Of a DNA stretch of 64,000 nucleotides, positions 28,662-57,307 are shown piece after piece. The position numbers and the translations under genes were made by a program. The stretch comes from a candidate division WOR-1 bacterium RIFOXYB2_FULL_37_13 (GTDB lineage: Bacteria; Margulisbacteria; WOR-1; XYC2-FULL-46-14; XYC2-FULL-37-10), in assembly GCA_001771535.1 (NCBI GenBank), contig MEUB01000036.1:842-64841 (forward strand). The letters run 5' to 3'. A model generated the notes under the pieces. The model was not told where the DNA came from. It saw nothing but the letters and a program-made list of their open reading frames with translations, and did no database searches. Numbering within the stretch: the first letter of the stretch is position 1; each line of letters begins with the position of its first letter.

Positions 28662-28800
28662 TAAAATTTATTTCTATTCGATAAAAACATATGCGTATAG
28701 TTTTTATAAACACTCTTCCTCCGTATAGAGTTATATAAAACTCAATTGCCCTTCTATCCAAAATCCTATATAATCCCAAACAAGAAAAGGAGTAATTAAT

Positions 28801-42749: not shown

Positions 42750-42758
42750 AAGAATCAA

Positions 42759-43154
42759 TTAAACAACAACACCATTTCCTGATGTATCAGGATTAATCAA
42801 TTGACTGCGCATTTGTTTTGCCTTTGATGAAATATTTTCCAACGCGATTAACATTTTATCTATTTCTTTTTTAACAGCGGGATCCGACGAATCCTGTTTT
42901 ATTGTTCGAAGGACACAAATCGCATCTTCTAAATTATTTCCATCCTTAGAACCAGTTAAAAGAGCAACAGCATTTCTTATTTTTTTAGCAATTTCCTTTA
43001 ATTTTTGCTGATTTTCCAGTTTTGCTTCCCCTGTTTCTTTTAAAATCTGAGCCAAAATTTCGTGAAGATCGCGCAATATTTTATTTACCGCCTCGTTGGG
43101 GTCGTTTTTTTCAAAGGCAACCGCAATGTTATTAAGTGACGAAGGATTTATCAT
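42759..43154 (-). CDS. Cluster ORFan, all-helical 131 aa (N-terminus MINPSS)
   Basis: GGGAG RBS 9 nt before ATG 43154. No signal peptide. No family recognised. Confidence 0.55.
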   Translation of the reverse strand: MINPSSLNNIAVAFEKNDPNEAVNKILRDLHEILAQILKETGEAKLENQQKLKEIAKKIRNAVALLTGSKDGNNLEDAICVLRTIKQDSSDPAVKKEIDKMLIALENISSKAKQMRSQLINPDTSGNGVVV

Positions 43155-43187
43155 TTTACTCATCTCCCTTTGTAATCTCAAACATTA

Positions 43188-44807
43188 TTAAACCGCTTCT
43201 CTTATGTCCTGTGGTCCTCCCGGAATCTGAGAATCAAGATGCGATTCGACTTTCAAGCGTTTCATTAGTTTTAAAATTAAAGACAATCTCTTTTCCAAGT
43301 TTGGATTTTGTGCCCCTTTCACCCTATATTCCAAAGACAAAAACTCATCTTTTGCCGCGTCAAATACTTTAATATTGGCAGAGTCGCGCAAACTATTGAA
43401 TTCTGTTTCATCTATTTCCCAACCCAAACGTTTAAGGTTGCTTAAAATACCTTTAATTTTCTGTTCAACCAGCTTAAATGCCGGCCCGGCCAATTCGTAA
43501 AGAGTTCCTCTTTCTTCCAGCGCGGACGAAAGCATGTCAACCAATCTGAGCCTTGCGGCGGCTATCCCCTCTTTTTCTATATCTTTAAATTCATCGCTTG
43601 AAACACCAAGCTTAATTAATCCGTTCTTTAATTTTGTAACTTTAAAATAGGTCGAAAGAACAGTTGCCATATCTCCGGAAATAGCGCGATGCATGTAAAT
43701 GGCCCGTAATCTGTTTATAAAAAGATCTTTTTCGTCTTCTTTTGAAAACTCATAGGGATTCTTTTTGTTTTTTGACTGTGATCCTAAATCCATATCCCCG
43801 GTTCCTAATGGGATATTGGGCGCAAACATACCGATATCAAATTTCTTTACCTGCCAGTCCTGAGAAAATTCGTTTAAATTAACTCCTACCTTTGTAGCAA
43901 GCTTAAGAAGTTCTTTTAATTCATTTGTAATTTTCTTGTCTGTTTCGGCATCGGCAGCCAAATGTTTGCCAATTAACTTTTCTGCCATCTTCTCTTTGGT
44001 GAAATCTTTAAGGTCAGAAAGCATCTCTTTCTTAATTTCGTCCGCGACCCCTTGCAAAGATTCATTGTCATGCAAGCCGGAAAGCAAGGCAGAATCCAAT
44101 ACAGTGTTTAAAGTTTTGTCTCTGATTATAAGGCCAACACTCTTTTCTTTTGTCAATATCTTTTTAAAAAAAGCGTCCTTTATCTGTTCTCTGACATCCT
44201 GGCGCATGGAATTTTTTACAGTTGTTCTTATGGAAATAAGGTCTTTATTGGTAAATCCTTTTTCGCTGAGCAATTTCTCCAAAGTTTCAAGCTTCTTCTT
44301 AATATCCTGTGAATCATTTACGGCGTATTGGGAATAAAGGGCGGCATATTCTTTGACTGCTTCCTGTGTCTTTGCATCAACTGTAATTTTTAATGCCTGG
44401 TCCTGTCCTTTTTGTCCCTTGCCTCCCTGCTGTTTCTTTTGCTCCCCTGCCTTGCCGACAACATTATTTAATTCTACAAAATCATCAAACTTTTCATCTC
44501 CACGGAACAACTGGCTAAGTTCGTCCTCAAGCTCTCCTTTTGTCTTATCAGATAAACGGTCAGGCTTAAGAGAAACACCGGCTGTTGCCAGTTTTGTAGC
44601 CAATCCGGCCAAGATGTCGAGTCCGGCCTTGCTTGCCGTAACCCCGCTTTGAAGGAGTTTGTCGACATCTGATTTCGCCTCAACTTTTCGAGTTGGAAAA
44701 TCAGATGCCGTTTTTTTATCTATCTGTTTAAGTTCAACAGACAAACTATTGCTCAACGCGACAGCCATTTGCTGCGAAGACGCGTTATCTACAATGTTAA
44801 CTCCCAT
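43188..44807 (-). CDS. Cluster ORFan, 539 aa, K/E-rich helical with a Q/G/K low-complexity tract
   Basis: Long ORF with an RBS. No signal peptide or TM helix. GEQKKQQGGKGQKGQDQ tract. Confidence 0.6.
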   Translation of the reverse strand: MGVNIVDNASSQQMAVALSNSLSVELKQIDKKTASDFPTRKVEAKSDVDKLLQSGVTASKAGLDILAGLATKLATAGVSLKPDRLSDKTKGELEDELSQLFRGDEKFDDFVELNNVVGKAGEQKKQQGGKGQKGQDQALKITVDAKTQEAVKEYAALYSQYAVNDSQDIKKKLETLEKLLSEKGFTNKDLISIRTTVKNSMRQDVREQIKDAFFKKILTKEKSVGLIIRDKTLNTVLDSALLSGLHDNESLQGVADEIKKEMLSDLKDFTKEKMAEKLIGKHLAADAETDKKITNELKELLKLATKVGVNLNEFSQDWQVKKFDIGMFAPNIPLGTGDMDLGSQSKNKKNPYEFSKEDEKDLFINRLRAIYMHRAISGDMATVLSTYFKVTKLKNGLIKLGVSSDEFKDIEKEGIAAARLRLVDMLSSALEERGTLYELAGPAFKLVEQKIKGILSNLKRLGWEIDETEFNSLRDSANIKVFDAAKDEFLSLEYRVKGAQNPNLEKRLSLILKLMKRLKVESHLDSQIPGGPQDIREAV

Positions 44808-44819
44808 CTTATTTTCACC

Positions 44820-44996
44820 CTATCCTTTTTTCTTGCCTTCCTCTCCCCAAATGATTTTATTGACCGAGTTTGATTTTAGTTTTTCTGTAAGCCTTGCCAT
44901 CACCACGTTTGACCACTGATTCTGCTGGGCTTTGGAAAGTTTTTCATCAGTAGGTTTCACAGAATCCGAAAGTTTAGGATTATAAGTGCTCGCCAT
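44820..44996 (-). CDS. Cluster ORFan, 58 aa (MASTYNPKLSD...)
   Basis: AAGGAGG RBS 8 nt before ATG 44996. Overlaps the 3-prime end of the GT2-TPR gene by 17 nt. Confidence 0.5.
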   Translation of the reverse strand: MASTYNPKLSDSVKPTDEKLSKAQQNQWSNVVMARLTEKLKSNSVNKIIWGEEGKKKG

Positions 44997-46086
44997 TTGA
45001 ATCAACCTCCTTTTTTAATTGTTCAATCCTAGCCTTTAATTTTGGATCAGGATAAAAATCGTAAGCAATTGTAAATTCCCTCAATGCGTCTTGTTTTTTT
45101 TGACCCATTAAATATGCGCTACCAAGATAAAAATGCGGAAAATAAGTATAATCTTTGATATTAAAACCGTTTAAAGCATTTTTGGGCGGGGATAATTTAC
45201 TTGCGTGCTCAAAAACATGGATAGCATCTTTGGTCTGTTTTGTGAACAGGTAAATAACACCCATCATGTTATAAGCCTCGGCATTAAACGGCTCCAACGC
45301 GATAACTTCTTTTAAGGTTTCAAAAGCTTGCGCGTATTTGCTCTGTTCCATAAGCATCTTTGACATCCTCATCCTTGAGACAACCGAGATAGGATCTTTG
45401 GGCGCAATTGAGACAACCGTAGAATATTCAGAAAACGCGGTTGTCTTGTCTCCAACGTCAAAATAGTTATTTGCCAAAAGGAAGTGGCAATGAAAATCAT
45501 TTTGGTCTTTTTGCAAAGCCTCTTTTAGTATCCGGAAATTTCTCTCCTTCTTTTCCTTTGCCTTCTCCTCACCCAAATCCTTCCCCCAATGAAAAACTTT
45601 AATATCTTGCAAAAATTCCCCTTTGAGCAATTCTCCCGAGGCAGCATAAACCTGCTCATTAAAAGAACGCCCAAAATGAATTCCTTTATTATTTTTAAAA
45701 ACTTTCAGCCTTGAATAAAATCTGGAGCCTTCCTCTGTTCCGAATTGAGCCTGATATATAGGCAAATAATATGCCTCTTTGTCACTCTTCTCTAAAATCT
45801 GGCGAAGCGTATCAAGCGTTTTCTCATTTATAAACTCATCAGCGTCTACCCATATAATCCAATCACCCAAAGCGTGTTTGAGCGATTCATTTCTAGCCGC
45901 CGAAAAATCATCGATCCAAGAAAAAGTATGAATTTTCGCCCCCAGTTTTTTGGCGATTTCAATTGTATTGTCCGTTGATCCGGTATCAACCAAAACAATT
46001 TCATCAACTTTTTTTGCAAGAAGAGGCAAAGTTTTTTCAAGAACTTTTTCTTCGTTTTTTACTATCATACAAACTGAGAGTTTCAT
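44980..46086 (-). CDS. Family-2 glycosyltransferase fused to C-terminal TPR repeats
   Basis: LSVCMIVKNEEKVLEKTL, VDTGSTDNT, WVDADE (DxD) GT2 motifs. The C-terminal about 170 aa has TPR-like repeats. Confidence 0.8.
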   Translation of the reverse strand: MKLSVCMIVKNEEKVLEKTLPLLAKKVDEIVLVDTGSTDNTIEIAKKLGAKIHTFSWIDDFSAARNESLKHALGDWIIWVDADEFINEKTLDTLRQILEKSDKEAYYLPIYQAQFGTEEGSRFYSRLKVFKNNKGIHFGRSFNEQVYAASGELLKGEFLQDIKVFHWGKDLGEEKAKEKKERNFRILKEALQKDQNDFHCHFLLANNYFDVGDKTTAFSEYSTVVSIAPKDPISVVSRMRMSKMLMEQSKYAQAFETLKEVIALEPFNAEAYNMMGVIYLFTKQTKDAIHVFEHASKLSPPKNALNGFNIKDYTYFPHFYLGSAYLMGQKKQDALREFTIAYDFYPDPKLKARIEQLKKEVDSNGEHL

Positions 46087-46476
46087 TTAATTTTCTCCTA
46101 CAGAAACCGATATTCTACTCTTAGTCAAAAATTTTTCTATTTTCTCCTTTTCTTCATTCTGAGTCTTAAAAACTTTCCCAAAATATTTCTTGTACATATC
46201 AAGCAGCCTTTCAGCCCGCTTTATATATATTTCAAGTTTTTCAAGTTTTATCAAAACTTCTTTTTTATCTGTCCCCAATACTTGCATCTCATATTCAATA
46301 TTTGACCTTTCAGAATAAAAAGATAAAAGATGATTCTTTAACGCGTCATATTCCATCTCTTTTATTTTTATCGGATTATAATCATCTTTCACTCCCAGCT
46401 TGTCGGCTTGGATCAAAAGCTGATTTTCAAGCTCTTGAAAAACTCTCATTTGAGCTTTTATTTTTTTACTGCTCAT
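46087..46476 (-). CDS. Cluster ORFan, 129-aa coiled-coil protein
   Basis: Heptad-rich K/E sequence. The stop abuts the GT2-TPR start, and the start overlaps the upstream gene by 4 nt. Confidence 0.55.
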   Translation of the reverse strand: MSSKKIKAQMRVFQELENQLLIQADKLGVKDDYNPIKIKEMEYDALKNHLLSFYSERSNIEYEMQVLGTDKKEVLIKLEKLEIYIKRAERLLDMYKKYFGKVFKTQNEEKEKIEKFLTKSRISVSVGEN

Positions 46477-47024
46477 ACAATTTTTGCCCCCGTAACAATC
46501 CCAAACAATGCCTTTTCACTTGCGACCTGTGCCAGGCCATTTTTAACAGCAATATTTTTTTCTTCTCTTGCTTTTGACATTAATTTTTCTATTTCAGCAG
46601 GGCTTATGCCAAGCAATCCCATTTGAAAAGTAATTACCCCAACCCCCATTTTAGAAAGTTCGGCCACAAAAAAATTATGGCTGAAAGTATCCATTGCAAG
46701 CTTAACCATCTTATTTTTAAGAACCTGCAAAGTTTTATCCCTGAATCTCAAATTATTATTTTTTGATAACGATTCAACTTCATCTTCTGCCAAAGCCGAA
46801 GATGCGGCGGCAAGATAGACGGTATCCTGCATTCCGACTTTATAAGTTTTGCTTCCATCTTTTCCCTCAACTGTTTCCCACACTAAAGAGGACATTTGTT
46901 GTGTCCCTTCGTTCTGTTTTTCTTTGGGAACTTCTTCTTTTAATTTTTGGTATGCGGCTTTTTGCGCCGAGAACATTTTGTCCTGGCTTAAATTAGCCGC
47001 AATTGTTGGCGCTTCATATGCCAT
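46473..47024 (-). CDS. Cluster ORFan, 183 aa
   Basis: GGGGAAGG RBS. First gene after promoter P4. No family recognised. Confidence 0.55.
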   Translation of the reverse strand: MAYEAPTIAANLSQDKMFSAQKAAYQKLKEEVPKEKQNEGTQQMSSLVWETVEGKDGSKTYKVGMQDTVYLAAASSALAEDEVESLSKNNNLRFRDKTLQVLKNKMVKLAMDTFSHNFFVAELSKMGVGVITFQMGLLGISPAEIEKLMSKAREEKNIAVKNGLAQVASEKALFGIVTGAKIV

Positions 47025-47047
47025 AAATTATACCTTCCCCTATGTAT

Positions 47048-47075
47048 AAATCGTATTAAATAGGGAAAAACTTGC
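47048..47075 (-). promoter_or_regulatory. Sigma-28-like promoter P4
   Basis: Minus strand GCAAGTTT-TTCCCTATTTAA-TACGATTT. The -10 element ends 23 nt before ATG 47024. Confidence 0.55.
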
Positions 47076-47108
47076 ATTTAAACTAAGAAATAAAAAGAGG
47101 ATTAACCT

Positions 47109-49388
47109 TTACTTGTTTTTCTTTTTCTGGCCGCCCTTACGTTCTTCCATCCGTTTTCGCTGCACTTTAGAACTTGACTCCTTATTTCCCATTTTTTGTA
47201 ATTCTTCTCTTCGTTTTTGGGCTTTGGCCGCGGATTGAGCAATTCCGGCCCTGATCTCGGCATCCTTTTTTTGTTCTTGACCTTTATCAATGGCTTCCTG
47301 ATATCTCAACTCCATTTTTCTCTCATGGTAGGCTGCCATATCTTTTTTATAATCCAGGCGGTCTCTCCTATTGCGGACATTGTTAGCAATTGTTCTGCCG
47401 ACATCCTTGTCACCAAATCTTAAAAGCCCCATAACATCGTAAACCGCCCAGTTATTCATATTAACAGCTTCATTGCCATTTTCATCATAAGCAATTCCTG
47501 ACCTATTTCCTGAAAGATTTATTCCCATAAGCTGTGAAGGAAAATATTTTGGATGAGGCCCTCCGGAATCACTGGCTATTTTATTGTTGTTTGGGCCATC
47601 TTTAATCGTTGACGATGTTTCACTATCAGGATTCCAGATACTGCCTTTAGCGCTGTAAAAATCCCACCCCGCACGTTTTCCCAGTTCGTTGTCATCATTT
47701 TTCGTTCTTATGTAAGGCTGAGAATCATAAACACTACCATAACTATCGGTATTAGGGTTTGGATTGTCTATTCCAAAATATTCATACATCAGATTTTGAA
47801 CGTCACCTTGATATTCATCTATTCCGTAATAATCGTCATCATCTACTCCTTGATAATTTTCATCTTTCGCAAGCGACCCAAGATAATTTTTATATGTTTG
47901 CGTATTATTATATAGCCAGTCGTTAAATCTTATAAACGCCAGCTGATCTTTACCCGAAAAGAGCCATCCCGGAAGTCCTCCGCTTTTATCGGTCGGCTTA
48001 AAAAGAAATTCCGAGGGATTAAATCCATACGCGGGAAAAACTGATCTGAAAGAATGCTGCATAGAAATAAAAAGGTTAAGAAAAGCAAGATTATGCGAAT
48101 CTGCCATAAGCCCTCGCATAGGATCAGAACGCCATTTATCAAAAGAGCCGCGCAACGCGGCATCATCTGGAGTTGCTGTTACTGTTACCGTCCCATCGCT
48201 ATTGGTAACATATGTCAAACGGCCTATATCGCTATTGCTCCCAAAGATCTCTGTCATGGCGCTATAAATTCTACGGCGTGATTCGAGCATTCCAAGCATC
48301 AGCTTAAATGCCCCTTCCCCATGATCTCCAGCTTGCAGGTCATAATCAAATAGGCCGCTATTAAAAGAATCGCGTCCTGTGGTAAATGTTTCGCCATCTC
48401 CGCTTTTCCAGTTATTATTGTTATTCCAGTCACTGTCTCCCTTCCATCTTATGTTTTCCCCATCGGTAACCCCATCGCTCCCTGCCTCAATTTTTGCCCC
48501 TTTTTTAAATCCCGACATTATAATTTCATAGTAACTTTCGTCTCCATAATCTTCAAGATTTTTTAAAATACCGTCAGATAATGCTTTAATCGGAGTTCCT
48601 TTTTTTTCTTTATCTTCTTTATTGTAAAAATTGAGCCCTTCATCCCAAATATCAGAATAGGTTTCTGGATTAAAAATTCCCAGTGATAATGGGTTTAAAA
48701 AATGAAATAAATTATCGTAATTTATAGGGCCATTAAGAGATGAGCCCTGATACGTCTCAATAAGATCATGAGCTTTTTTTTCAATTCCATAATGTTTCTT
48801 GTCATTTTGATTAACATCGAAGTGGTTGAATTGGGATACTGACGGATGAAAATCTAGGTTTTCCGCCCTACTCCCTTCAAAAAATCCCCAAGGCAACCCA
48901 TCCCCCTGAGTTCTTGGAACTCTATGCCATGAGCCAAAGTTATCTCTTGTATATCCACGCCCTGCATCGCTATCCCAGACATCGTTAAAACGGGTATGCA
49001 CAGGATTTCCATCTTCATCCAACAGATAATACGGATTTTTATCGTCAGTCCCGTTCCATTGCGGAATATCCTCAGGATCTCCTTCCCATAAAGTCGGAAG
49101 TGGATCGTTGCCCTCCCAAAATGAAGAGCCTTCCGCATATCCGAATTCCGTCAAAGCATCGTAAAACTCTTCTGATGATTCTCCCGCGTAACCTACCTGT
49201 TCAAATCTTGGCAGAAATTTCATCATCTCCATAAGAAAATTAACGCGGCTGCCCAGCCATTGGAAAGAAGAGGGAGTTTCAACCCCATCATGGAGATAAA
49301 ATCTGGAATAATCAGGATTGTCTACTTTCAACGGCTTACGAGGTTTTGGCAGTGTCTCACTATTTCCAAAGGAGTTCATAAAAAACAT
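47109..49388 (-). CDS. Cluster ORFan, 759 aa, acidic W/Y/D/N/G-rich body with an about 90-aa K/R-rich C-terminal tail
   Basis: AGGAGG RBS. No signal peptide or TM helix. The tail ends ...KAQKRREELQKMGNKESSSKVQRKRMEERKGGQKKKNK. Confidence 0.65.
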   Translation of the reverse strand: MFFMNSFGNSETLPKPRKPLKVDNPDYSRFYLHDGVETPSSFQWLGSRVNFLMEMMKFLPRFEQVGYAGESSEEFYDALTEFGYAEGSSFWEGNDPLPTLWEGDPEDIPQWNGTDDKNPYYLLDEDGNPVHTRFNDVWDSDAGRGYTRDNFGSWHRVPRTQGDGLPWGFFEGSRAENLDFHPSVSQFNHFDVNQNDKKHYGIEKKAHDLIETYQGSSLNGPINYDNLFHFLNPLSLGIFNPETYSDIWDEGLNFYNKEDKEKKGTPIKALSDGILKNLEDYGDESYYEIIMSGFKKGAKIEAGSDGVTDGENIRWKGDSDWNNNNNWKSGDGETFTTGRDSFNSGLFDYDLQAGDHGEGAFKLMLGMLESRRRIYSAMTEIFGSNSDIGRLTYVTNSDGTVTVTATPDDAALRGSFDKWRSDPMRGLMADSHNLAFLNLFISMQHSFRSVFPAYGFNPSEFLFKPTDKSGGLPGWLFSGKDQLAFIRFNDWLYNNTQTYKNYLGSLAKDENYQGVDDDDYYGIDEYQGDVQNLMYEYFGIDNPNPNTDSYGSVYDSQPYIRTKNDDNELGKRAGWDFYSAKGSIWNPDSETSSTIKDGPNNNKIASDSGGPHPKYFPSQLMGINLSGNRSGIAYDENGNEAVNMNNWAVYDVMGLLRFGDKDVGRTIANNVRNRRDRLDYKKDMAAYHERKMELRYQEAIDKGQEQKKDAEIRAGIAQSAAKAQKRREELQKMGNKESSSKVQRKRMEERKGGQKKKNK

Positions 49389-49411
49389 AATCTGCCTTCC
49401 TCCTGATTTTT

Positions 49412-49735
49412 CTACATTGAACTTAAGCGATCTTCAAGTTTGCGCACATTATTCCAAATATCCAAAATCGCGGATTGCGCCTGATCTATTTTTGCCATGC
49501 GATCTTCAAGCAGCAATGATGTTGAAGAAGAATTTACATTTGCTCCGTTTACATAATTATTTCCTATTTTCAAAGTTTTAGTAGGATCCGGATTCACTGA
49601 TAATTCCGCGTAATTTTTTATAAGATCAGCCATTTCAGTATAAAAACTTTTAACAGTTTTTATAACGTCCACATCAGGTGAATGATTGATCTCCCCTCCC
49701 AACGGTGAAAAAAATTTAACATTAAAAAATGCCAT
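49412..49735 (-). CDS. Cluster ORFan, 107 aa, helix-loop-helix-like
   Basis: AAGGAGG RBS. Predicted N- and C-terminal helices flank an N/S-rich loop (VNPDPTKT...NVNSSSTS). Confidence 0.55.
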   Translation of the reverse strand: MAFFNVKFFSPLGGEINHSPDVDVIKTVKSFYTEMADLIKNYAELSVNPDPTKTLKIGNNYVNGANVNSSSTSLLLEDRMAKIDQAQSAILDIWNNVRKLEDRLSSM

Positions 49736-49758
49736 TTTTTTATTCCTCCTTTTATATC

Positions 49759-49817
49759 CTCTTCTAAAAAATCAATTATCTGTTTTTTTAGAAGAGCCCC
49801 CCGGCAAGCCGGGGGGC
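49759..49817 (-). other. Twin stem-loop element between the 102-aa and 107-aa genes
   Basis: 9-bp GC-only stem GCCCCCCGG-caag-CCGGGGGGC (49796-49817) plus a 13-bp arm pair CTCTTCTAAAAAA / TTTTTTAGAAGAG (49759-49771 and 49784-49796). No 3-prime U-tract on either strand. Confidence 0.7.
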
Positions 49818-49836
49818 TAGAAAAAAGTTTATAATA

Positions 49837-50145
49837 TTAGCTTCTAACAATTTGACGGGTCCTTTCCGCCATTTGATTCTTCTTGGATACAGCGCTTGCA
49901 GCTGTCTGCTCAATTGTCGATAGTTTACTAAGATAACTATCTAAAACAAGAGCCCCTCCACCACTTGATACGTCTATGTCTGTCCCTCCAACATTCACAT
50001 TTATTGTTGTGTCTTCAATCGTATCATTCTCCCCATCAACTGCAATAGCACTTTTGATATCTTCCATCAGTTGATCTATGCTATTATCACAAGAACTTGC
50101 CACATCATAAGCATTCTGTTCAATCGTATTAGGAGTATCTGCCAT
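49837..50145 (-). CDS. Cluster ORFan, 102 aa, acidic
   Basis: AGGAGGTG RBS. Helical N- and C-termini flank a G/D/T-rich middle (NVNVGGTDIDVSSGGGAL). Confidence 0.55.
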   Translation of the reverse strand: MADTPNTIEQNAYDVASSCDNSIDQLMEDIKSAIAVDGENDTIEDTTINVNVGGTDIDVSSGGGALVLDSYLSKLSTIEQTAASAVSKKNQMAERTRQIVRS

Positions 50146-50186
50146 ATATTCTCACCTCCTTTTACACACATATAGTCTTAAACCGT

Positions 50187-50444
50187 CTACACCAATGTAT
50201 TAACATTAAAGCCCCGCATACCAAGTTTATCTGCTATCGCGTGAAATCTGTTAACTGAGATATGTCCTTCCTGTACAAGGTTTTGCATAATTTCAAACTT
50301 ACCAGCCTTGCTGGTAGAAGAATCTTTGGCCAGATAGGAGGAAAGATCGGAAGTCACGCTTGAATTGGAATAAGTAGACCCGCCGGATTCTTCCATATCC
50401 ATCTGCGGCATAGTTACTGTTGAATTTGAAGCTGGGTTTATCAT
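50187..50444 (-). CDS. Possible FlgM-like anti-sigma-28 factor (85 aa)
   Basis: S/T-rich, probably disordered N-half. C-terminal KFEIMQNLVQEGHISVNRFHAIADKL parallels the FlgM C-terminal pattern (kVaalKaaIasGtYkvDaekIAdkL; compare B. subtilis [26 protein letters not shown]). Sits directly behind sigma-28-like promoter P3. Confidence 0.35.
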   Translation of the reverse strand: MINPASNSTVTMPQMDMEESGGSTYSNSSVTSDLSSYLAKDSSTSKAGKFEIMQNLVQEGHISVNRFHAIADKLGMRGFNVNTLV

Positions 50445-50454
50445 TGCATTACAT

Positions 50455-50482
50455 ATATCGTAGCGGGGTAAAAAAAACTTGC
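50455..50482 (-). promoter_or_regulatory. Sigma-28-like promoter P3
   Basis: Minus strand GCAAGTTT-TTTTTACCCCGC-TACGATAT. Only 10 nt lie between the -10 element and ATG 50444, with no SD (leaderless geometry). Confidence 0.55.
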
Positions 50483-50491
50483 ATGAAAAAA

Positions 50492-50785
50492 TTATTTGTA
50501 GGATTTATCATTTAAAATATTTTTTATTTTTGAAAGGCGCTTAAAAATATTTTTAAGACACTCTTCTTCTTCGTCTATTTTCGGCTCTTTTTCCCAATCA
50601 GCCTTTAATCTAGCCTTGCTCATGTCTGACGCGTAAATTTCGTTGCCGCGAACAACTTTATCGGCGCGCAAAATAAATCCGCGCAGACTTTGCAGAAAAT
50701 TTTGTCCGTTTATTTCCTGCGGCTGGCTTTGTTTTGTTTTTATATCATTTAAATTAAGTGCTGCGTTTATTTTATTTACTTCCAT
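50492..50785 (-). CDS. Cluster ORFan, 97 aa
   Basis: Start ATG overlaps the stop of the 1523-aa gene (TAATG), suggesting translational coupling. Confidence 0.55.
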   Translation of the reverse strand: MEVNKINAALNLNDIKTKQSQPQEINGQNFLQSLRGFILRADKVVRGNEIYASDMSKARLKADWEKEPKIDEEEECLKNIFKRLSKIKNILNDKSYK

Positions 50786-53700
50786 TATACTAGCCCTCCT
50801 CCGATTGTAGGCCTGTTTTTCTGCTCTAAAGATGAAAGAGCCGCCATTTCTCCTGTTTGCGCTAAATAGAGCTCATAAGGATTCTGCCTTCTTCTGTTGT
50901 TGTCCTGGCCTTTAGATGGAGATGGCGCTGAGTTTACAGATATCCCAGCATCTTGTGAGCCGCTTAAATCAACAGGGATTACTATTTTGTCTTTGTCATC
51001 ATCCCTCGCAACTTTAAGATGAATATCCCTTTGTTTGACAGAGTCCTTGATATAATCAGCCGAGCTTTTGGAGGTATCCCAAATATTGTTTAATATATCA
51101 TCATTTTGTTGAGAGGTAATCTCGCGAGCCTCCATTTCAAGATCAATAGCGCCGGATGTGAGCGCGCTTGCGAGAGAATTGCTTTCTGACTTATTAACTC
51201 CCGCGGCCCATCCCTTTTGGTTTGAGCCTGAAGTTTCTGATCTGATTTCAGATAAATAGGCCTCTCTTCTTTCTATCCTCTCTTCTCTTGCCTCTTTAAC
51301 ACTCTTGCGCTTTCCACCGCTTGCGAACCCTGAATCATAAATAATACCAGCCAGTAAAACCGCTATATTCTCCGTTAACCCTCCTATAAACTGGTATAGT
51401 CCTAAGTCCTCGTACTGCTTAATATGTTCATTATACGCAAACATTTTTTTATCATTTTCGGACTTAATGTTTTCTATATCAGCATTAATTTTTCTATACT
51501 CATTAGCAAGTTTTTTATATGAAGACTCATCCCCTCTCGAATAAGCCTCATCCGCGAATTTCCTTTTTTCTTCCGCCAAAATTTTCTTGTCTCGCGCGAC
51601 TTTTTCAGCTGTTTTCATGTTTTCTATATTCTCCCGATAGTCCTCTCTAAGCGCCGCTGTTTTATATACAAAAACCAGATTAACCAAAGAGATTGACGCG
51701 GCAATCAAGCTCTGTACCATTGCCCGCTTTGCAAAATTCATCTGGTTATGGCGCTCAACAATTGTCAAGACATTCTGATAAAGGGTACCTATATTTGCCA
51801 TAGCAGAAGCCTGTTCCGATGAAAAAGCGTCTGTCGCGTTTCCAACTCGCCCTCCCGCACCAGATAAAGTAGCGTGAATTGAGGCTCTCATTTCTGCCTT
51901 TGCTTCCTGCAATTTTGCCAACACGTCACGAATATTAAAAATCCTCTCCATTTTATGACGAAATAATTCTACTACTCCGCTATTTACACCCCATCTGCCC
52001 GCCCCCAAATCTTCTATAATATCCATTGACATATCTTTGTATAATTCCATTTCCATCAATTCAAGATCATCAAGTGTCGAATCTCCAGAATGTTCTTCTT
52101 TTAATCTTTCGGCAATTTTTTCAGGGTCGTATTTTTCTATTTCACGCCCTCGCCTGCTGCGGATTGAATTGATGATAAAATCATAACCGGCATTAGCAAT
52201 CCCCATCATAGGAGAAATAAAGGCAAAAGCTATTTGCGAGTAATTTATCCCAACACCGGCGCAAGCGGTAAGAATCGCAATATCAATTCCCAGTTTAAAT
52301 GAAGCATCAATTATATTTTTTCTTGAATCTAAGGCTCTCTTTTGAGTTTCAATTCTTTCTCCCAAGAACTGCACTAAATTATCAAAAACTTTCAGCTTCC
52401 CTTCAAATTCAGCTCTGTTAACATCGTGAGAAAGCTTCCCTTCTCTTCTTCCGGAAACGCCTGTCATTTCGAGATGGACAAGATTTCTCATTTCTGTTCT
52501 TGCTTCATTTAGAGTCGCCAAAATATTTTGGATGTTGGCAAGGCGGGTTAAAATATCTCTAAGCTTGGCAACATATCCTCCATTTAAACCCCAATATCCG
52601 TCACCAATATCTTTATTTATCCCGTTGGTAAATAACTCTTCATAAACTCGCGCTTCAAGGCTTGCCATACGGGCTTGCGTTGAATTCGGGTTATTTTTTC
52701 TAAGGGTTCTTAGATAGGCGGGAACGCCATCATCCCCATAACTTGAGCCAAAAGAGCCCATCGTCAATTCATATAACAGACTGGAAGTAAATCCGCCTAA
52801 AGCGCCACCGACCCCCCAGCCTATATAAAAAAGTCTTGTTGAAAGACTTGCCGTAGCTTCTGTAGCAGCCCTTGTCCCAGCTTCCAAACCTTCTTCAGCA
52901 AGTTTGCCGCCTTTATCTAAAAGTTTCCCTAATAACCCTCCAAAGGCAGCGCAGACCCCTTGAATAACAAGCGAAAGAGCAAAACTGTTTACGGCGCCTG
53001 CCATTTTTTTATCTTTTGCAATCGCCATATTTTCGGCGTTTTTATATTCATTTAACATAAAAGTCAAAGTATCAAATTTAAACTGAGCTAAGCGCGCATC
53101 AGATTCAACCGCGGCATCAACATAGGCAGAAGATTCCCTACCTCCAACTCCTGTCATTTCCATATGAACCAGATTTCGCATGGAATTTTTTTCTTTACTT
53201 AAGGCAACAATAACTCTTCTTATATTTTGAATTTTTACCAATTGGGTTTGCAGTCTTGCTATCTCCTCAAAGTCTATTTTCTTGAATTCTTCGGATGCCC
53301 TATCTGTAAACCAGTTGCCGGGGTTTGCATTAGACTGTGTCCACCACGATCTAACCCTGCCTTCATCGCTATCCTCATCCTGAATCATACTCTCATCATT
53401 TTGAACAATAATGCCATCTTCCATATTGGAAGTACTATTCATAATATCAAGCATGTCGTTTCCTGTATCTGTATCAGCTTGATCTCCCGTATCGTATGAA
53501 GGAATATCCGGCACATATCCCTCTGTCATAGAATTTGCGACAATTGCGCCTGCCAGTTTTACTCCCGCAGCCAATACGCCAAGTATCAAGCCCGCAACAG
53601 GAACAAAAAATCCGACTACTATCGCAGCTACAGAAAGAAAATTCGAAATAACATTAAAAACCCGCTGTACTTTGGCTTTTTCTATTTCTCCTTCCAGATA

Positions 53701-55356
53701 TTTGACATTGTTTTCAAGCTGCATCTTTTGCTGAGTAAGCCTGATATTTGTCTCAAAAAGTTGAGTTTTATGCTGGTCTTCCATTTCTTGAAGTCTTTGC
53801 GCGTTACTGTTGCTCTCTCTGCCTCCGACCCCTGTCATCTCTTTGTGAACCATGTTGCGCGTTTCCTGTTTCGCGCCTCTTAACATGTTTAACGCTTTTC
53901 TTATATTTTGCAAACCATAAAATTGTTTGCGTATTTTAACAAGTTCATCTTCATCAAGTTCCCAATAACCATTATCCCCTTTATAGACAATATTCGGGAT
54001 ATCAGCAAAGATAGCCATTTCTCCATTTTGCAACGCCTCATCAATTTTTGCGGGGTCACTTTCTATCTGCAAAGAGCCATCTTCCTCTTTATCAGTCGTT
54101 TTATTTAACAAGTCAAGAACTGTACTCATCGCTCTTAAATATTTTTCAACAGCTCTTTTTTGCATTTCAAGACTCATTTCCGTGTTGCTGCCGCCGGTTA
54201 TGGCATCTGTTGCCTGATTCCAGAGGCCATCCGTTGTTGCCTGCGCCGCGGCGACCTCCGCATCAACAATGGCCTGGTTATAATCCATCATCTCTTCAAG
54301 AAGTTTGCCAAACGCCACGCTGACTCTTGCCAGCCTGTTTTGTACTTCTTTGGCAATAATTGTTTTGGTATCCATTCCTTTCATGGGAGTAAGGCCAAGC
54401 AGCTCTTCCACCACAAGATTATACATATCATCTTTCGCTTCCGTCAGCATTTGGAACATAATAAGCAGCCCGCAAAGAAAGCTGACTTTTTCATACCAAT
54501 CAGCCAAACGATCCGTATCAACAACCATCATTCCATCATCGTTGTAATAATAAAAATCATCAGGATCATAATTATTTACCGCGTTATCCAGCTCGTTGCT
54601 GACAGCAACCACAGTCTCCGCTGTTGAACTATTTTCATCTAAGGCCGCAAGATACGAATATTCATAAACATAAGAGGTATCCCCATTTTCATATTGTTGC
54701 TGATGCAGCCATTGGTCAAAATTATATTGGGCGGAATGCTGAGTATTGGCATCCCATGATTCTTCAAATGTTTCGATCTCTTTGCCGTCCTGATAAACCA
54801 GTATTGCATCTTCTTCTCTAGTTGAGGCAGAGGTATCTTTTCTATAGTGGGAATTTACAACCATATAACCGTCATATTTTTTTGATTCTTCTTCCAGATA
54901 AGCCTGCGCCGCTTCTTCACTGTCAAACGTAACTGTAGTTCCATCAGGGTTTGTAATTGTTACCGTAGTCTCTCCTGTAGTATCCACATAAGTAGTCATA
55001 TCATATTCAGCTGAAACATCGGTACTGGCAGATTGGCTCTCAGTTGTAGAAGTTGACGAAGTTGTTGATGTCGTTGATGCAGTTGAAGCAGTCTCCGCAG
55101 ACTGAGAAGATGAAATATAATTAGGGTTATCTTCCGCAAGATTTAAAACTGGCTCACCAAAAACAACCTGACTTTGCGCACTGTTCAAGCTTGAACGAAT
55201 TGAAGAAACATCAACAGATATAGAAGAATCAACTTCAGGCACTTCTATCTTTTCATCAAGAAGGTATGGAGGAGTTACACCCGCGCCACCAATTTGGTCA
55301 GATTCAAGCTGGTCAGAAAACTTTTGTACTTCAACAATTTGATAGAGGTTTCCCAT
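50785..55356 (-). CDS. Giant modular membrane protein (1523 aa) with four to five repeated helical-plus-hydrophobic-hairpin modules
   Basis: Repeated motif NxVHxEMTGVGGRES at 53812-53856, 53131-53175, 52441-52485 and a degenerate SIHATLSGAGGRVG at 51841-51882. Each is preceded by GYW-x-LN...NIR/Q...L..EA and followed by a coiled coil and a 40-50-aa bilobed hydrophobic segment. S/T tract at 55021-55113. Confidence 0.75.
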   Translation of the reverse strand: MGNLYQIVEVQKFSDQLESDQIGGAGVTPPYLLDEKIEVPEVDSSISVDVSSIRSSLNSAQSQVVFGEPVLNLAEDNPNYISSSQSAETASTASTTSTTSSTSTTESQSASTDVSAEYDMTTYVDTTGETTVTITNPDGTTVTFDSEEAAQAYLEEESKKYDGYMVVNSHYRKDTSASTREEDAILVYQDGKEIETFEESWDANTQHSAQYNFDQWLHQQQYENGDTSYVYEYSYLAALDENSSTAETVVAVSNELDNAVNNYDPDDFYYYNDDGMMVVDTDRLADWYEKVSFLCGLLIMFQMLTEAKDDMYNLVVEELLGLTPMKGMDTKTIIAKEVQNRLARVSVAFGKLLEEMMDYNQAIVDAEVAAAQATTDGLWNQATDAITGGSNTEMSLEMQKRAVEKYLRAMSTVLDLLNKTTDKEEDGSLQIESDPAKIDEALQNGEMAIFADIPNIVYKGDNGYWELDEDELVKIRKQFYGLQNIRKALNMLRGAKQETRNMVHKEMTGVGGRESNSNAQRLQEMEDQHKTQLFETNIRLTQQKMQLENNVKYLEGEIEKAKVQRVFNVISNFLSVAAIVVGFFVPVAGLILGVLAAGVKLAGAIVANSMTEGYVPDIPSYDTGDQADTDTGNDMLDIMNSTSNMEDGIIVQNDESMIQDEDSDEGRVRSWWTQSNANPGNWFTDRASEEFKKIDFEEIARLQTQLVKIQNIRRVIVALSKEKNSMRNLVHMEMTGVGGRESSAYVDAAVESDARLAQFKFDTLTFMLNEYKNAENMAIAKDKKMAGAVNSFALSLVIQGVCAAFGGLLGKLLDKGGKLAEEGLEAGTRAATEATASLSTRLFYIGWGVGGALGGFTSSLLYELTMGSFGSSYGDDGVPAYLRTLRKNNPNSTQARMASLEARVYEELFTNGINKDIGDGYWGLNGGYVAKLRDILTRLANIQNILATLNEARTEMRNLVHLEMTGVSGRREGKLSHDVNRAEFEGKLKVFDNLVQFLGERIETQKRALDSRKNIIDASFKLGIDIAILTACAGVGINYSQIAFAFISPMMGIANAGYDFIINSIRSRRGREIEKYDPEKIAERLKEEHSGDSTLDDLELMEMELYKDMSMDIIEDLGAGRWGVNSGVVELFRHKMERIFNIRDVLAKLQEAKAEMRASIHATLSGAGGRVGNATDAFSSEQASAMANIGTLYQNVLTIVERHNQMNFAKRAMVQSLIAASISLVNLVFVYKTAALREDYRENIENMKTAEKVARDKKILAEEKRKFADEAYSRGDESSYKKLANEYRKINADIENIKSENDKKMFAYNEHIKQYEDLGLYQFIGGLTENIAVLLAGIIYDSGFASGGKRKSVKEAREERIERREAYLSEIRSETSGSNQKGWAAGVNKSESNSLASALTSGAIDLEMEAREITSQQNDDILNNIWDTSKSSADYIKDSVKQRDIHLKVARDDDKDKIVIPVDLSGSQDAGISVNSAPSPSKGQDNNRRRQNPYELYLAQTGEMAALSSLEQKNRPTIGGGLV
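51700..54430 (-). repeat. Intragenic protein-level repeat modules (201-230 aa period) of the 1523-aa gene
   Basis: Motif spacing is 681, 690 and about 603 nt. An earlier, more degenerate module lies near 54370-54425 (DMYNLVVEELLGLTPMKGMD). Confidence 0.7.
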
Positions 55357-55364
55357 TGATCATT

Positions 55365-55392
55365 ATATCGAAACAAAAAGGGGAAAACTTGT
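55365..55392 (-). promoter_or_regulatory. Sigma-28-like promoter P2
   Basis: Minus strand ACAAGTTT-TCCCCTTTTTGT-TTCGATAT. 8 nt lie between the -10 element and ATG 55356, with no SD (leaderless geometry). Confidence 0.55.
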
Positions 55393-55439
55393 ATGGTTTT
55401 TATTGATTTACAGGGGAAAACAAAACCTGTTTTAATTAG

Positions 55440-55658
55440 TTATTTTTGCAGGTTTTTCAACTGTTCCTGCAAGGTTTTTTTCGCATTTTCAAGCTCTTTG
55501 TTGACGGAGGCAATTTTATTGTCAAGTTTTTTGATATCTTCTTCGGCTTTTTTCTTTATGAGTGTATAGCGTATAATTTGAAAAGTATTATATATTATAA
55601 AGGCGACTCCCACCCCGACAAAAAATGTCACCCAATTTATAGTTGTTAAAAATTCCAT
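55440..55658 (-). CDS. Cluster small bitopic protein (72 aa): N-terminal TM helix plus coiled coil
   Basis: INWVTFFVGVGVAFIIYNTF TM helix, then a K/E heptad region. AGGAG RBS. Confidence 0.55.
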   Translation of the reverse strand: MEFLTTINWVTFFVGVGVAFIIYNTFQIIRYTLIKKKAEEDIKKLDNKIASVNKELENAKKTLQEQLKNLQK

Positions 55659-55680
55659 TTTGTTCTCCTATTTTACTCCA

Positions 55681-56037
55681 TCACACATTACTGTCAACTA
55701 CGGGATTATCCGCCGTAGGATTGCCGGCCATAGGGATAGAAAGGTCGCCGGATTCTTTTTCTTCTCTTTCAACTTTAACACGTGATTCATGCGCGCCAAA
55801 TAAAAATTCCGCCACAAGATCAAGAAGGCTTTTAGTCGCGGTCGCATGCATTTTAAATTCCAAGGTATCTATTTCTGCTCCTTCAGGAGTATACCTGTTA
55901 GTCACAGAAGTTTGTAACGGCTCATCAACAAGTTTCCGTTTAGCAGCCTTAATTTCACCGGCAAGGTCAGGCTCATATTTAATTGCTTTACTATTTCCAC
56001 TCTTCGGATTCATTGATATCGGCGATGTATAAGCCAT
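55681..56037 (-). CDS. Cluster ORFan, 118 aa (MAYTSPISMNPKSG...)
   Basis: AAGGAG RBS. No family recognised. Confidence 0.55.
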   Translation of the reverse strand: MAYTSPISMNPKSGNSKAIKYEPDLAGEIKAAKRKLVDEPLQTSVTNRYTPEGAEIDTLEFKMHATATKSLLDLVAEFLFGAHESRVKVEREEKESGDLSIPMAGNPTADNPVVDSNV

Positions 56038-56060
56038 TTCCCTTCACGCTCCTTTTTTCC

Positions 56061-57230
56061 CTAACTTCCTCCGCTAACAGGAACCGGAATATCCGCAGCA
56101 TATTTATTAAGTGTATCAATCACCCACTCTGTTCCTTGTTTTTCATAATTTTCAAATATCAGATCGGTAACATATTTCCCTTCAGGGGTTACTGTCTTTG
56201 CGTCAAAGTTAATCGCATCAATCCGTTCTGCAAGACTTTTCTCTTTTGCCCATTTTCTAAACCGTTCAAGATTCTTTTGATACCCTAACAATTGATCAAT
56301 ATCTCTTTTTAAGCTCTTGTAATCTTTCATGTAATCTTTATTCTGGTAATAACTCTGTAAAATAGGAGCAAAACGGTCTACGGCCCATTTATCGGCAAGC
56401 ATAAGTTTGTTTATTGTAGGATAACCAAATTTTTTGCCCGCGTCTTCAATAAACGAATTCGTAAGACCCATGGTAAACAATTTCCAGCCTTCAGAATTTA
56501 ACTTGTCAAAGCTTTGAGCAGGTTCGTCACTGCCAACAACAGAAGCAACAGCCGCATAGTGAAAAGCATTACTAACTGCGGTATTTCCCAAATCAGCATT
56601 GCTCCAACCCATTTCTTTTACTTTTGATGTCATAGTCCTTGCAGAAATAATTACAAGATATTTGGTTTCCGCAAGCTGCTTAAATGACCGCTCTCCTGTT
56701 AAATCCATTGAACTCAAAGTATCTTTCAAGATTATAAGAAGTTCATTTCTGTCCTTGATATTCCCTTTCCCAAGAGTAATATCATCCCAGAATTTTTTTG
56801 TAGTTTGAACCCCCAGCAATTTATCAAATTCTTTCTGATTCATGCCATCCGTTTTAAATGCCAAATCAAGAGAGGCAGAAACATTTGCTTCCTGAAATTT
56901 TTTATCAGGTCTTATCTGTCCAAGGAATGAATAAATTTGATGATCGAGAGTTGTAGGTATCGGGATATCTCCACTTGCTGCCGCGTCAACTCCACTTTGG
57001 GGAGTAACTATTCCTGGCGCTATATTTCCGCTGGCAGAAGAAGAGGTTCCGGTCGGTTCTATTTCGCCCGCAGAAGAAGTCGCTGAAGTTGACGGCAAAT
57101 AAGAAGAAAGAACCGAAGTATCAGTTCCCAATTCAACTCCGGGCATATTTCTGCCGCACCCGTCCACTACAAGATTTACATTTCTTGTCGGTTGTTTTGG
57201 CGCACTGGTTACAGGAATAAAAAGAGCCAA
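56061..57230 (-). CDS. Cluster ORFan, 389 aa with an S/T/G/P-rich N-terminal region
   Basis: TTG start with AGGAGG 7 nt upstream. S/T tract at about 56975-57119. No signal peptide. Confidence 0.6.
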   Translation of the reverse strand: MALFIPVTSAPKQPTRNVNLVVDGCGRNMPGVELGTDTSVLSSYLPSTSATSSAGEIEPTGTSSSASGNIAPGIVTPQSGVDAAASGDIPIPTTLDHQIYSFLGQIRPDKKFQEANVSASLDLAFKTDGMNQKEFDKLLGVQTTKKFWDDITLGKGNIKDRNELLIILKDTLSSMDLTGERSFKQLAETKYLVIISARTMTSKVKEMGWSNADLGNTAVSNAFHYAAVASVVGSDEPAQSFDKLNSEGWKLFTMGLTNSFIEDAGKKFGYPTINKLMLADKWAVDRFAPILQSYYQNKDYMKDYKSLKRDIDQLLGYQKNLERFRKWAKEKSLAERIDAINFDAKTVTPEGKYVTDLIFENYEKQGTEWVIDTLNKYAADIPVPVSGGS

Positions 57231-57279
57231 AGGAAATACCTCCTTTACCTTCTATAATATATAAATCATTACACCTCTA

Positions 57280-57307
57280 TAGTCGAATCAAGCTTTAAAA
57301 AACTTGC
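57280..57307 (-). promoter_or_regulatory. Sigma-28-like promoter P1
   Basis: Minus strand GCAAGTTT-TTTAAAGCTTGA-TTCGACTA, 49 nt upstream of start 57230. Confidence 0.5.

Follow-up and report, generated by a model that had tools for sequence, protein, structure and literature searches.

What is made by fifteen adjacent genes of which all but one match no known protein family? The question is raised by a cluster on the minus strand (42759-57230) of a stretch of DNA from an uncultivated groundwater organism, the candidate division WOR-1 bacterium RIFOXYB2_FULL_37_13; the full 64-kb stretch is called the window here, and the minus-strand genes the cluster. WOR-1, also named Candidatus Saganbacteria, is placed with the Margulisbacteria as a sibling of the Cyanobacteria, and the key paper on these lineages reports nothing on motility, secretion or cell-surface structures (PMC6349859). 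It was found that the cluster is a conserved and co-regulated system of about 15 genes specific to Margulisbacteria/Saganbacteria, which is centred on a giant protein with hydrophobic hairpins, is coupled to glycosyltransferases and is preceded by sigma-28-like promoters. To judge from the sequences, it probably builds a previously undescribed glycosylated surface or membrane structure.

Organization and conservation of the cluster

The 15 open reading frames (ORFs) lie back to back with short gaps, and three of the junctions overlap. The stop codon of the giant gene and the start codon of the following gene have one base in common at 50785 (TAATG), the genes of the 183- and 129-amino-acid (aa) proteins overlap by 4 nt (46473-46476), and the 58/61-aa ORF overlaps the gene of a GT2-TPR glycosyltransferase at 44980-44996/45005. 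In gene order, the products measure 389, 118, 72, 1523, 97, 85, 102, 107, 759, 183, 129, 368, 58/61, 539 and 131/140 aa. The ORF coordinates agree with an initial annotation of this DNA, which had described 15 tightly packed minus-strand genes with these overlaps. It had counted 13 ORFs besides glycosyltransferases, where there are 14, and had included a CgeB-like glycosyltransferase whose gene lies outside the range given for the cluster and is not part of the conserved block. The GC content of the cluster equals that of its flanks, which consist of housekeeping genes: UDG, pseudouridine synthase, a DnaQ-like exonuclease, Pta and PmbA on one side, and GT4, the C-terminal half of CarB and GltX on the other. 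LptF/G is encoded in the window, which indicates that the organism is diderm. The contig is also found in a JGI and in an ENA metagenome, and the best match of the SerRS, at 64% identity, is from an unclassified metagenome-assembled genome.

Related loci, of which 20-30 kb each were examined, are designated by L-numbers; L003 is from WOR-1 RIFOXYD2_FULL_36_8, L084 and L088 are from GCA_040961595.1, and L092 is from the Candidatus Margulisbacteria metagenome-assembled genome (MAG) GCA_028715625.1. Five or more related genomes carry these genes in collinear order, with amino-acid identities of 27-66%. In L003, every gene except the 61-aa ORF is present in the same order, at 27-66% identity and between the same housekeeping flanks. 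L084/L088 carry the block from the 389-aa to the 140-aa family, and L089 is likewise complete. The block is also present in L086, where the boundary of the locus lies upstream of the first giant gene, and the short contig of L085 holds only its downstream third. Even between genomes of only 45-58% identity, the block keeps its chromosomal place among housekeeping genes. The block is thus conserved as a unit in related genomes, a check that the initial annotation had itself proposed, and the comparison supports the view that the cluster genes form one conserved functional unit.

Four loci with more distant giant proteins (L090, L091, L093 and L094) contain all-orphan clusters of like layout beside tyrS-ispF-pdxJ/SLH genes; a GC content of 50-54% was measured for L090 and L091. 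Besides the giant, L090 has homologues of the 102-, 107-, 129-, 183- and 539-aa families, which were recovered with phmmer and jackhmmer, and positional analogues of other members. A gene of the 23S_rRNA_IVP family (four-helix bundle) occurs at varying places inside or beside the cluster in relatives (7887-8252 in L089, 6707-7039 in L090, 19684-20118 in L091, 20217-20573 in L093 and 19940-20299 in L094), and there is none in the window.

Sigma-28-like promoters

A bipartite motif, CAAGTTTT-N13-CGA (also written CAAGTTTT-N11-nnCGATAT), has four exact matches in the 64 kb, all of them intergenic and on the minus strand. The chance expectation in the window is 0.08, and none of 100 shuffles reached four. 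The first site (P1, 57283-57306) heads the genes for the 389-, 118- and 72-aa proteins, which begin at 57230, and sites precede the first cluster gene in L003, L088 and L089 as well. The second (P2, 55368-55391) stands directly before the giant gene (55356) and recurs in L003, L089, L090, L093 and L094. The third (P3, 50458-50481) heads the 85- and 102-aa genes (50444), with orthologous sites in L003, L086, L088 and L089. The fourth (P4, 47051-47074), which heads the 183-aa, 129-aa, GT2-TPR, 61-aa, 539-aa and 140-aa genes (47024), is the best conserved (..TTAATCCGATAT) in L003, L086, L088 and L089.

The motif was found at orthologous positions in L003, L084, L086, L088 and L089 and also in the GC-rich relatives L090, L091, L093 and L094. 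In all, 40 sites from nine cluster-bearing genomes (36-54% GC), every one on the sense strand, give the consensus cATGCAAGTTTT-N11-(c/a)CGATAwATA, with ATGCAAGTTTT as the -35 block. A stricter form, CAAGTTTT-N13-CGAT, is present in 12 of the 14 cluster-bearing loci (not in L085 and L092) and in none of the controls, which were 80 unrelated bacterial SerRS loci. The shared motif and the co-regulation that the initial annotation had proposed are therefore borne out by footprints in nine genomes. Its division of the cluster into four units, each headed by the motif, stands as regards the four motifs, but a fifth break (about 49795-49818), ahead of the 107/759-aa gene pair, has no sigma-28-like motif. 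This break, between the 102-aa and 107-aa genes, is occupied by a GC-rich hairpin, AGCCCCCCGG-CTTG-CCGGGGGGCT (49795-49818, minus strand), which was read from the sequence and is not among the calls of a consensus terminator scan; it is possibly a terminator or an RNA-stability element.

The consensus of sigma-28/SigD/WhiG promoters is TAAAGTTT-N11-GCCGATAA. The -10 element (C)CGATAA/T and the AAGTTT of the -35 element, spaced by about 11-12 nt, resemble it. The giant and the 85-aa genes lack a Shine-Dalgarno sequence, and only 8-10 nt separate the end of the -10 element from their ATG, which suggests mRNAs with no leader or almost none. When the 40 sites are compared, an (A)GTG some 12 nt downstream of CGAT proves to be conserved. 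A sigma-28-like site of looser form and not of the ATGCAAGTTTT type, GAAGATTT-N..-CCCGATAA, is located at 39932-39959 (minus strand), about 190 nt upstream of the gene for a 131-aa protein (39347-39742, minus strand). This protein has a marginal CxxCxxCC match (PF03692, YkgJ family), the family to which the flagellin methylase FliB belongs. No sigma factor gene of the FliA/SigD/WhiG type is present in the 64-kb window; flagellar superoperons with sigma-28 have been described in some Margulisbacteria (PMC11607428).

The giant hairpin protein

The largest cluster gene (50785-55356, minus strand) encodes a modular protein of 1523 aa. In it, a conserved N-terminal motif and a serine/threonine (S/T)-rich tract are followed by five modules of about 200 aa, four of them clear and one degenerate, by a coiled coil and by a C-terminal GGGLV. 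Within a module, G-x-W is followed by a helix with ..IQNIR..L..L.EAK.EMRNLVHxEMTGVGGR, a long helix and a Gly/Ala-rich hydrophobic hairpin; internal hydrophobic hairpins of this kind occur in no other cluster protein.

An exhaustive search of 1.84 billion representative proteins with an eight-module profile gave 154 matches at E <= 1e-3, of which 123 reach E <= 1e-10 and 50 reach E <= 1e-30. Almost all of these relatives measure 1100-5152 aa and have 4-5 module copies. Wherever an organism is named, it belongs to Candidatus Margulisbacteria/Margulisiibacteriota or WOR-1, and one more entry is labelled only '[bacterium]'. A scan of a genome collection with the giant protein found nothing. Both termini are conserved in the family: the first 45 or so residues contain ..[DE]..[IL]AG.GA.P.Y[LI].. 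with D-S-x-S-[IV]-S behind it, and at the other end 82 of 111 representatives finish in A, V, S, C or G (43 in A, 14 in V, 12 in S and 8 in C), the tails often reading G-[AG]-G-V-[SA]-[AC].

Some distant homologues appear to carry transglutaminase-like domains at the N-terminus, in which a GGGDCEDL motif is visible. The Transglut_core matches of two of them (P0033 and P0039) are marginal, with E-values of 3.5e-4 and 7e-5 and scores of 21-23 bits against a cut-off of 23, and a third (P0047) bears the JGI name transglutaminase-like; Pfam shows no such domain in the 1523-aa protein of the window itself. Taken with the Gly/Ala-rich hairpins and the conserved termini, these domains would give the family the flavour of an effector or translocon. 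The 2965-aa homologue of L094 (P0176, 10001-18898) has a weak precomputed Pfam match to HmpF (PF28019), a coiled-coil protein of cyanobacterial hormogonium motility; the match probably reflects coiled-coil composition.

In L086 (1-8857), there are two giant paralogues of 1734 and 1549 aa, which points to a duplication of the giant gene, and the first of them is followed by a 95-aa partner gene. In the window, the corresponding 97-aa basic helical protein (50492-50785, minus strand) is translationally coupled to the giant gene through the TAATG overlap. A gene for 95-100 aa also stands directly after the giant gene in L003, L086, L088 and L089. The 97-aa protein is a candidate partner or chaperone of the giant.

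Glycosyltransferases and the link to glycosylation

The one cluster member with a known family is the 368-aa GT2-TPR glycosyltransferase (44980-46086, minus strand), which matches Pfam Glycos_transf_2 at 4e-23 and contains TPR repeats. Orthologues occupy the same position in five genomes. Its best NCBIfam match is the SunS peptide S-glycosyltransferase TIGR04195 (1.6e-22), with 80 bits against a cut-off of 350; in sequence, the protein is SunS-like and not a member of that family. It is a candidate protein O-glycosyltransferase for the S/T-rich proteins of the cluster. Tracts of this composition, with S/T reaching 24%, were found in the giant, 389-aa and 85-aa proteins.

Convergent with the downstream end of the cluster lies a GT4 glycosyltransferase gene with NCBIfam GT4 matches (40425-41642, plus strand), whose place and direction are unchanged, at 46-50% identity, in L003, L085, L086, L088 and L089. 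In relatives, HisF/HisH-like, ROK and NTP-transferase genes flank the cluster. The GT4 neighbour, the flanking sugar genes and the S/T-rich tracts hint at protein glycosylation in the cytoplasm, and the connection to glycosylation made in the initial annotation holds for the SunS-closest GT2-TPR enzyme, for the conserved GT4 gene and for the sugar-pathway genes near the relatives. The CgeB-like glycosyltransferase (DUF3880 and Glyco_trans_1_2; 41655-42758, minus strand) is accessory: it has no counterpart in any related locus, its place being taken by a 272-310-aa gene in L088, L085 and L089.

The closeness to SunS and the several small ORFs that adjoin the gene bring to mind a glycocin- or bacteriocin-like locus, in which small precursors would be glycosylated by the SunS-like enzyme. 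This explanation is the least credible of those weighed here. The score of 80 bits is far under the cut-off of 350; no ABC exporter with a C39 domain and no double-glycine precursor was found in the cluster or its flanks, nor was an immunity or thiol-disulfide oxidoreductase gene; the translated small ORFs have no double-glycine leader or Cys-rich core; and proteins of 389-1523 aa dominate the cluster.

The enzyme can also be compared with the glycosylation systems of FlmG (Caulobacter), GmaR (Listeria) and SunS, with which it shares a GT2 domain joined to a TPR/helical domain, a gene inside the operon of its presumed substrates and further glycosyltransferase and sugar-synthesis genes adjacent to the cluster. 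It differs from FlmG, GmaR and Maf in domain order and family, and its SunS score is under the cut-off. Its presumed substrates are novel S/T-rich proteins; neither a flagellin nor a glycocin precursor is present. The spore-crust cge locus of Bacillus subtilis (CgeB and the GT2 enzyme CgeD) is similar in that CgeB-like and GT2 enzymes lie beside small helical proteins, but the CgeB-like gene is found only in this genome, the organism is diderm and there are no crust or coat homologues.

Searches for known families and folds

Known families were recognized only at 44980-46086 (Glycos_transf_2 and TPR) and 41655-42758 (Glyco_trans_1_2 and DUF3880). The other 14 cluster proteins had no significant match in Pfam, NCBIfam, PHROGs, PADLOC or PDB sequences; the PADLOC scan took in 10 cluster proteins. 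No Sec/Tat-like N-terminus is present in any cluster protein, the only N-terminal hydrophobic segment being the membrane anchor of the 72-aa protein, and no Walker A motif occurs in the cluster. The initial annotation had recognized only the two glycosyltransferases and had seen no Sec/Tat-type N-terminus and no Walker-type NTPase, and it was right on all three points. Nor did the HMMER-type profile check that it had suggested assign the orphans with confidence to unrelated known families, which supports its description of the system as undescribed.

Searches of PDB by sequence and profile with the 539-, 759-, 389-, 183- and 129-aa families and the giant modules gave no match. None of the orphans matched Sct, translocator (IpaB/YopB, SipC), needle/tip or CesT/LcrH families in Pfam, NCBIfam or PDB; LcrH_SycD matched only once, weakly, in the TPR part of the glycosyltransferase (4.5e-8, 33 bits, where the cut-off is 105). 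There is no WXG100/LXG match in Pfam, and no FtsK-like ATPase or Walker motif in the cluster. The small proteins were also considered as one expanded subunit family, which is ruled out by an all-against-all hhalign comparison, where no probability exceeded 14%. The literature that could be searched holds nothing on the cluster, its accessions, or motility or secretion in Saganbacteria. Apart from the glycosyltransferases, no component belongs to any described family and the system is previously undescribed.

The same searches bear on two further explanations. In the first, the cluster would consist of diverged canonical late flagellar genes (FlgM, FlgN, FlgK, FlgL, FliD, FliS, FliT, FlaG and flagellin) with a flagellin glycosylation island. 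This fits the sigma-28-like promoters and the sizes of the products, several of 85-140 aa together with 389, 539 and 759 aa, and flagellin glycosylation islands often contain GT-TPR and CgeB-like glycosyltransferases. However, flagellar axial proteins and flagellins are as a rule readily recognized, and no cluster protein matched a flagellar or chemotaxis model of Pfam or NCBIfam even at E 0.1; the multi-hairpin giant membrane protein also has no flagellar counterpart. No flagellin is encoded in the window or the related loci, though the TPR glycosyltransferase is present. This explanation is largely refuted and must be regarded as quite improbable. The 85-aa protein was considered as FlgM and rejected; the FlgM-like C-terminal stretch seen by eye is not kept in the L003 orthologue, and there is no NCBIfam FlgM match. 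The sole flagellum-related pair near any cluster is motA and motB (MotB_plug) in L092 (26594-28089, minus strand). A giant homologue of 4258 aa is encoded on the opposite strand, with the pair about 4 kb away on its downstream side; their proximity may be coincidence.

In the second, the cluster would be a domesticated or remnant mobile element, such as a prophage tail or ejection module, a polymorphic toxin or an anti-phage defence island. Giant helical proteins that are Gly-rich and hydrophobic, together with small ORFs, do resemble tape-measure or ejection proteins, the homologues have variable enzymatic heads, and 23S_rRNA_IVP genes are inserted in some versions of the cluster. Set against this, no capsid, portal, terminase or integrase gene is present, the GC content equals that of the surroundings, the position among housekeeping genes is fixed and the host-type promoters are conserved phylum-wide, so that a mobile origin is very hard to credit. 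The prophage or tape-measure reading was ruled out by the lack of a significant PHROGs match (the best two were marginal, with E of about 0.005, one of them on the 102-aa protein), and the defence island by the PADLOC scan, which gave no defence-system match for the 10 proteins scanned.

Other cluster proteins

The first cluster gene (56061-57230, minus strand as for all genes in this section) encodes the 389-aa protein, in which a disordered, S/T-rich N-terminal part of about 90 aa precedes a conserved globular domain; it has orthologues in L003, L088 and L089 and no family or PDB-profile match. It is followed by an acidic 118-aa protein (55681-56037), with orthologues in L003 and L089 and no family match, and by a 72-aa single-pass membrane protein (55440-55658) that combines an N-terminal transmembrane helix (hydrophobic residues 3-29) with a coiled coil. 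The latter is 62% identical to its L003 orthologue and has a positional analogue in L090. Between the 97-aa gene and the hairpin at the fifth break lie the genes of the 85-aa protein (50187-50444), with an S/T content of 24% and a conserved C-terminal tail ..VNTLV, and of a very acidic 102-aa protein (49837-50145; isoelectric point 4.1), whose orthologues reach the distant L090.

The 107-aa protein (49412-49735), likewise with orthologues as far as L090, is encoded 23 nt upstream of the 759-aa gene and is a candidate partner of its product. Acidic and aromatic residues abound in the 759-aa protein (47109-49388), whose first 670 positions include 104 D/E and 96 F/W/Y; it ends in a basic coiled-coil tail of 89 residues with 29 K/R. 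It is identical to the hypothetical protein A3J90_05110 of the candidate division WOR-1 bacterium RIFOXYC2_FULL_37_10. With its seven homologues, to which it is 38-47% identical, it shares the invariant motifs LPKPRKP, GYAGE, GRGYTRD, WHR, LPWGF, NHF, LESRRRI, ADPHN, QHS and GW.FSG.DQLAF, and the dozens of invariant polar and aromatic residues suggest that the family is possibly an enzyme. No fold came from profile searches, Pfam or PDB, the AlphaFold2 model had a pLDDT of 40, and a Pfam search at E <= 10 with all seven members of the family gave no consistent result.

The 183-aa protein (46473-47024) has a mildly hydrophobic segment and an invariant tail, FG(I/V)VTGA(K/R)(I/V)V. The basic coiled-coil protein of 129 aa (46087-46476), whose gene overlaps both neighbours, is the most conserved member, with identities of 56-66% and of 36% in L090; PDB searches with both proteins were empty. 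The basic 58/61-aa ORF (44820-45005) is absent in L003 and must be real because it is conserved in four other genomes (L084/L088, L085, L086 and L089) at 43-51% identity. The all-helical 539-aa protein (43188-44807) has a conserved C-terminal domain with FKMRKLKNGLIKLG and ATLYELAGPAFKL and ends in (R/K)EA(V/A); its C-terminal bundle was modelled confidently and has no specific structural neighbour. The last gene (42759-43181) encodes the helical 131/140-aa protein, which ends in ..GNGVVV and has orthologues in six loci; the 272-aa gene that follows the 140-aa gene in L088 is related to this family. A C-terminal ending of the form hydrophobic-x-V/A is kept in all orthologues of the giant, 85-, 140-, 183- and 539-aa families, and one may speculate that this shared tail is a recognition peptide for the TPR domain, an export chaperone or a protease.

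Comparison with sigma-28 regulons and secretion systems

The nearest analogies are regulatory, to sigma-28 late regulons, and architectural, to the hairpins and chaperones of type III secretion system (T3SS) translocators and Inc proteins and to TPR-glycosyltransferases. In sigma-28-dependent systems, proteins other than flagellar ones can be exported by the flagellar T3SS, for example FedA-D, CiaI and FspA of Campylobacter jejuni, and Chlamydia uses sigma-28 for late genes. As in a sigma-28 class III regulon, a bipartite AAGTTT / CCGATAA/T promoter with its halves about 11-12 nt apart precedes several small operons, the products have no Sec signal, small helical proteins stand beside larger ones, and glycosylation genes are linked. 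Unlike such a regulon, the cluster yields no product that matches a flagellar, chemotaxis or Fed/Cia family, no flagellar genes are near, a giant hairpin protein is central and the -35 element is the 11-nt block ATGCAAGTTTT.

With injectisome translocators and Chlamydia Inc proteins, the cluster shares hairpins flanked by coiled coils, the lack of a cleavable signal, polar S/T/N-rich N-termini, adjacent and partly coupled genes for small acidic or basic helical proteins, and a set of lineage-restricted orphans. It differs from them in that nothing in it resembles the Sct, translocator or LcrH-type chaperone families and in that the giants, at 1500-5000 aa, have four or five tandem hairpin modules; in contrast to T3SS signals, the N- and C-terminal motifs of the giants are conserved in sequence. 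Beyond the promoter, none of the testable membership features of these analogues was found.

Export, surface structure or membrane scaffold

A tentative reading of the cluster, which we hold with less than even confidence, is that its proteins are timed by sigma-28, O-glycosylated in the cytoplasm and either exported independently of Sec or built into an assembly around the giant hairpin protein. The cluster would be a phylum-specific, multi-protein "late" regulon under four or five promoters of the sigma-28 (FliA/SigD/WhiG) type. A sigma-28-family factor encoded elsewhere would fire the ATGCAAGTTTT-N11-nCGATAwATA promoters. The GT2-TPR enzyme and its GT4 neighbour would then glycosylate the S/T-rich tracts of the giant, 389-aa and 85-aa proteins in the cytoplasm, and the TPR half may recognize the small hydrophobic C-terminal tails of several members. 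The giant would enter a membrane with its Gly/Ala-rich hairpins and there either carry a surface structure or act as a translocon or effector, with the 97-aa protein serving the giant as chaperone or adaptor, the 107-aa protein the 759-aa protein, and the 61- and 140-aa proteins the 539-aa protein. Because no member has a Sec/Tat signal, any export would take a non-Sec route, for which a flagellar-type T3SS is the most likely in view of the promoter type. No T3SS, flagellar or other export genes are present in the 64-kb window.

Several observations weigh against this reading. Genes for an export apparatus, ATPase, secretin, flagellum or sigma factor are missing from the window and from the 20-30-kb loci, save motA/motB in L092. 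The diverged cluster of L090 has no GT2-TPR gene, and glycosylation is thus not universal. The 11-nt block ATGCAAGTTTT is longer than the canonical TAAAGTTT and departs from it at 2-3 positions, so that another sigma factor may be at work, or an additional regulator. Structure prediction of the cluster proteins gave no informative fold. Finally, hairpin flanks on the same side of the membrane, missing signal peptides and many coiled coils fit a membrane-anchored scaffold in the cytoplasm equally well.

Such a scaffold, a cytoplasmic assembly that is not exported, is nearly as likely, though in itself doubtful. The giant would sit in the bacterium's own inner membrane by its hairpins, with the soluble modules in the cytoplasm, and would hold the small coiled-coil, 539-aa and 759-aa proteins, for instance in a platform associated with motility, polarity or division. 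The nonpolar C-terminal tails, which resemble ssrA-like tails and end mostly in A, V, S or C, would here be degrons of the ClpXP/Lon type or docking peptides, not export signals. The missing signal peptides, the hairpin type of the hydrophobic segments, the abundance of predicted helices, the 72-aa partner with its transmembrane helix and coiled coil, and the lack of secretion genes in any locus examined are all consistent with it, and sigma-28 regulons normally include non-exported proteins too, such as stators, chemotaxis proteins and chaperones. On the other hand, a protein-type glycosyltransferase, S/T-rich tracts and flanking sugar genes would be unusual for purely cytoplasmic proteins, and the variable transglutaminase-like "cargo" domains of distant homologues look more effector-like.

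A bolder form of the export reading appears unlikely. It holds that the cluster encodes a new, phylum-wide surface or contact apparatus under sigma-28 control, in which glycosylated proteins without signals are exported by a T3SS-type route derived from the flagellum. Inserted in a membrane, perhaps that of a prey or partner cell, the giant would be translocon and effector in one, with transglutaminase-like heads in some lineages.

Other features of the window

The carbamoyl-phosphate synthase large subunit is represented only by its C-terminal half (CarB residues 549-1058; 36474-38045, minus strand), which implies a split carB. A 1067-aa protein without Pfam match (13240-16443, minus strand) adjoins an NHL-repeat protein and tyrS-ispF-serS; in distant Margulisbacteria, tyrS-ispF lies beside the sigma-28 cluster itself. 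Orphans of 406, 684, 170, 700 and 141 aa form a run at 22680-29226 (plus strand), with a weak GMC_oxred_N match in the 700-aa protein only. Two transposases with an rve integrase core, one full-length and one partial (30002-30862, minus strand, and 31341-31985, plus strand), indicate insertion sequence elements about 10 kb from the cluster. Likely toxin-antitoxin genes are a PIN-domain protein (8321-8716, minus strand) and an MNT-HEPN (nucleotidyltransferase/HepT-like) pair (20112-20943, plus strand). No RNA family of Rfam was found in the window.

Significance

The lineage is uncultivated and has so far been described in metabolic terms; some Margulisbacteria are ecto- or endosymbionts. The cluster adds about 14 new protein families and some 150 divergent representatives of the giant, which are kept together phylum-wide and wired to one alternative-sigma promoter, and it would add a new family of hairpin-module membrane proteins. 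If the apparatus in its bolder form were true, the sister lineage of Cyanobacteria would possess a class of secretion substrate, or of attachment organelle, not known before. As an export-substrate system or surface organelle, the cluster would show how these bacteria attach, move or interact with partners. Even if its products are cytoplasmic, the promoter motif is a handle for mapping the regulon in MAGs and metatranscriptomes.

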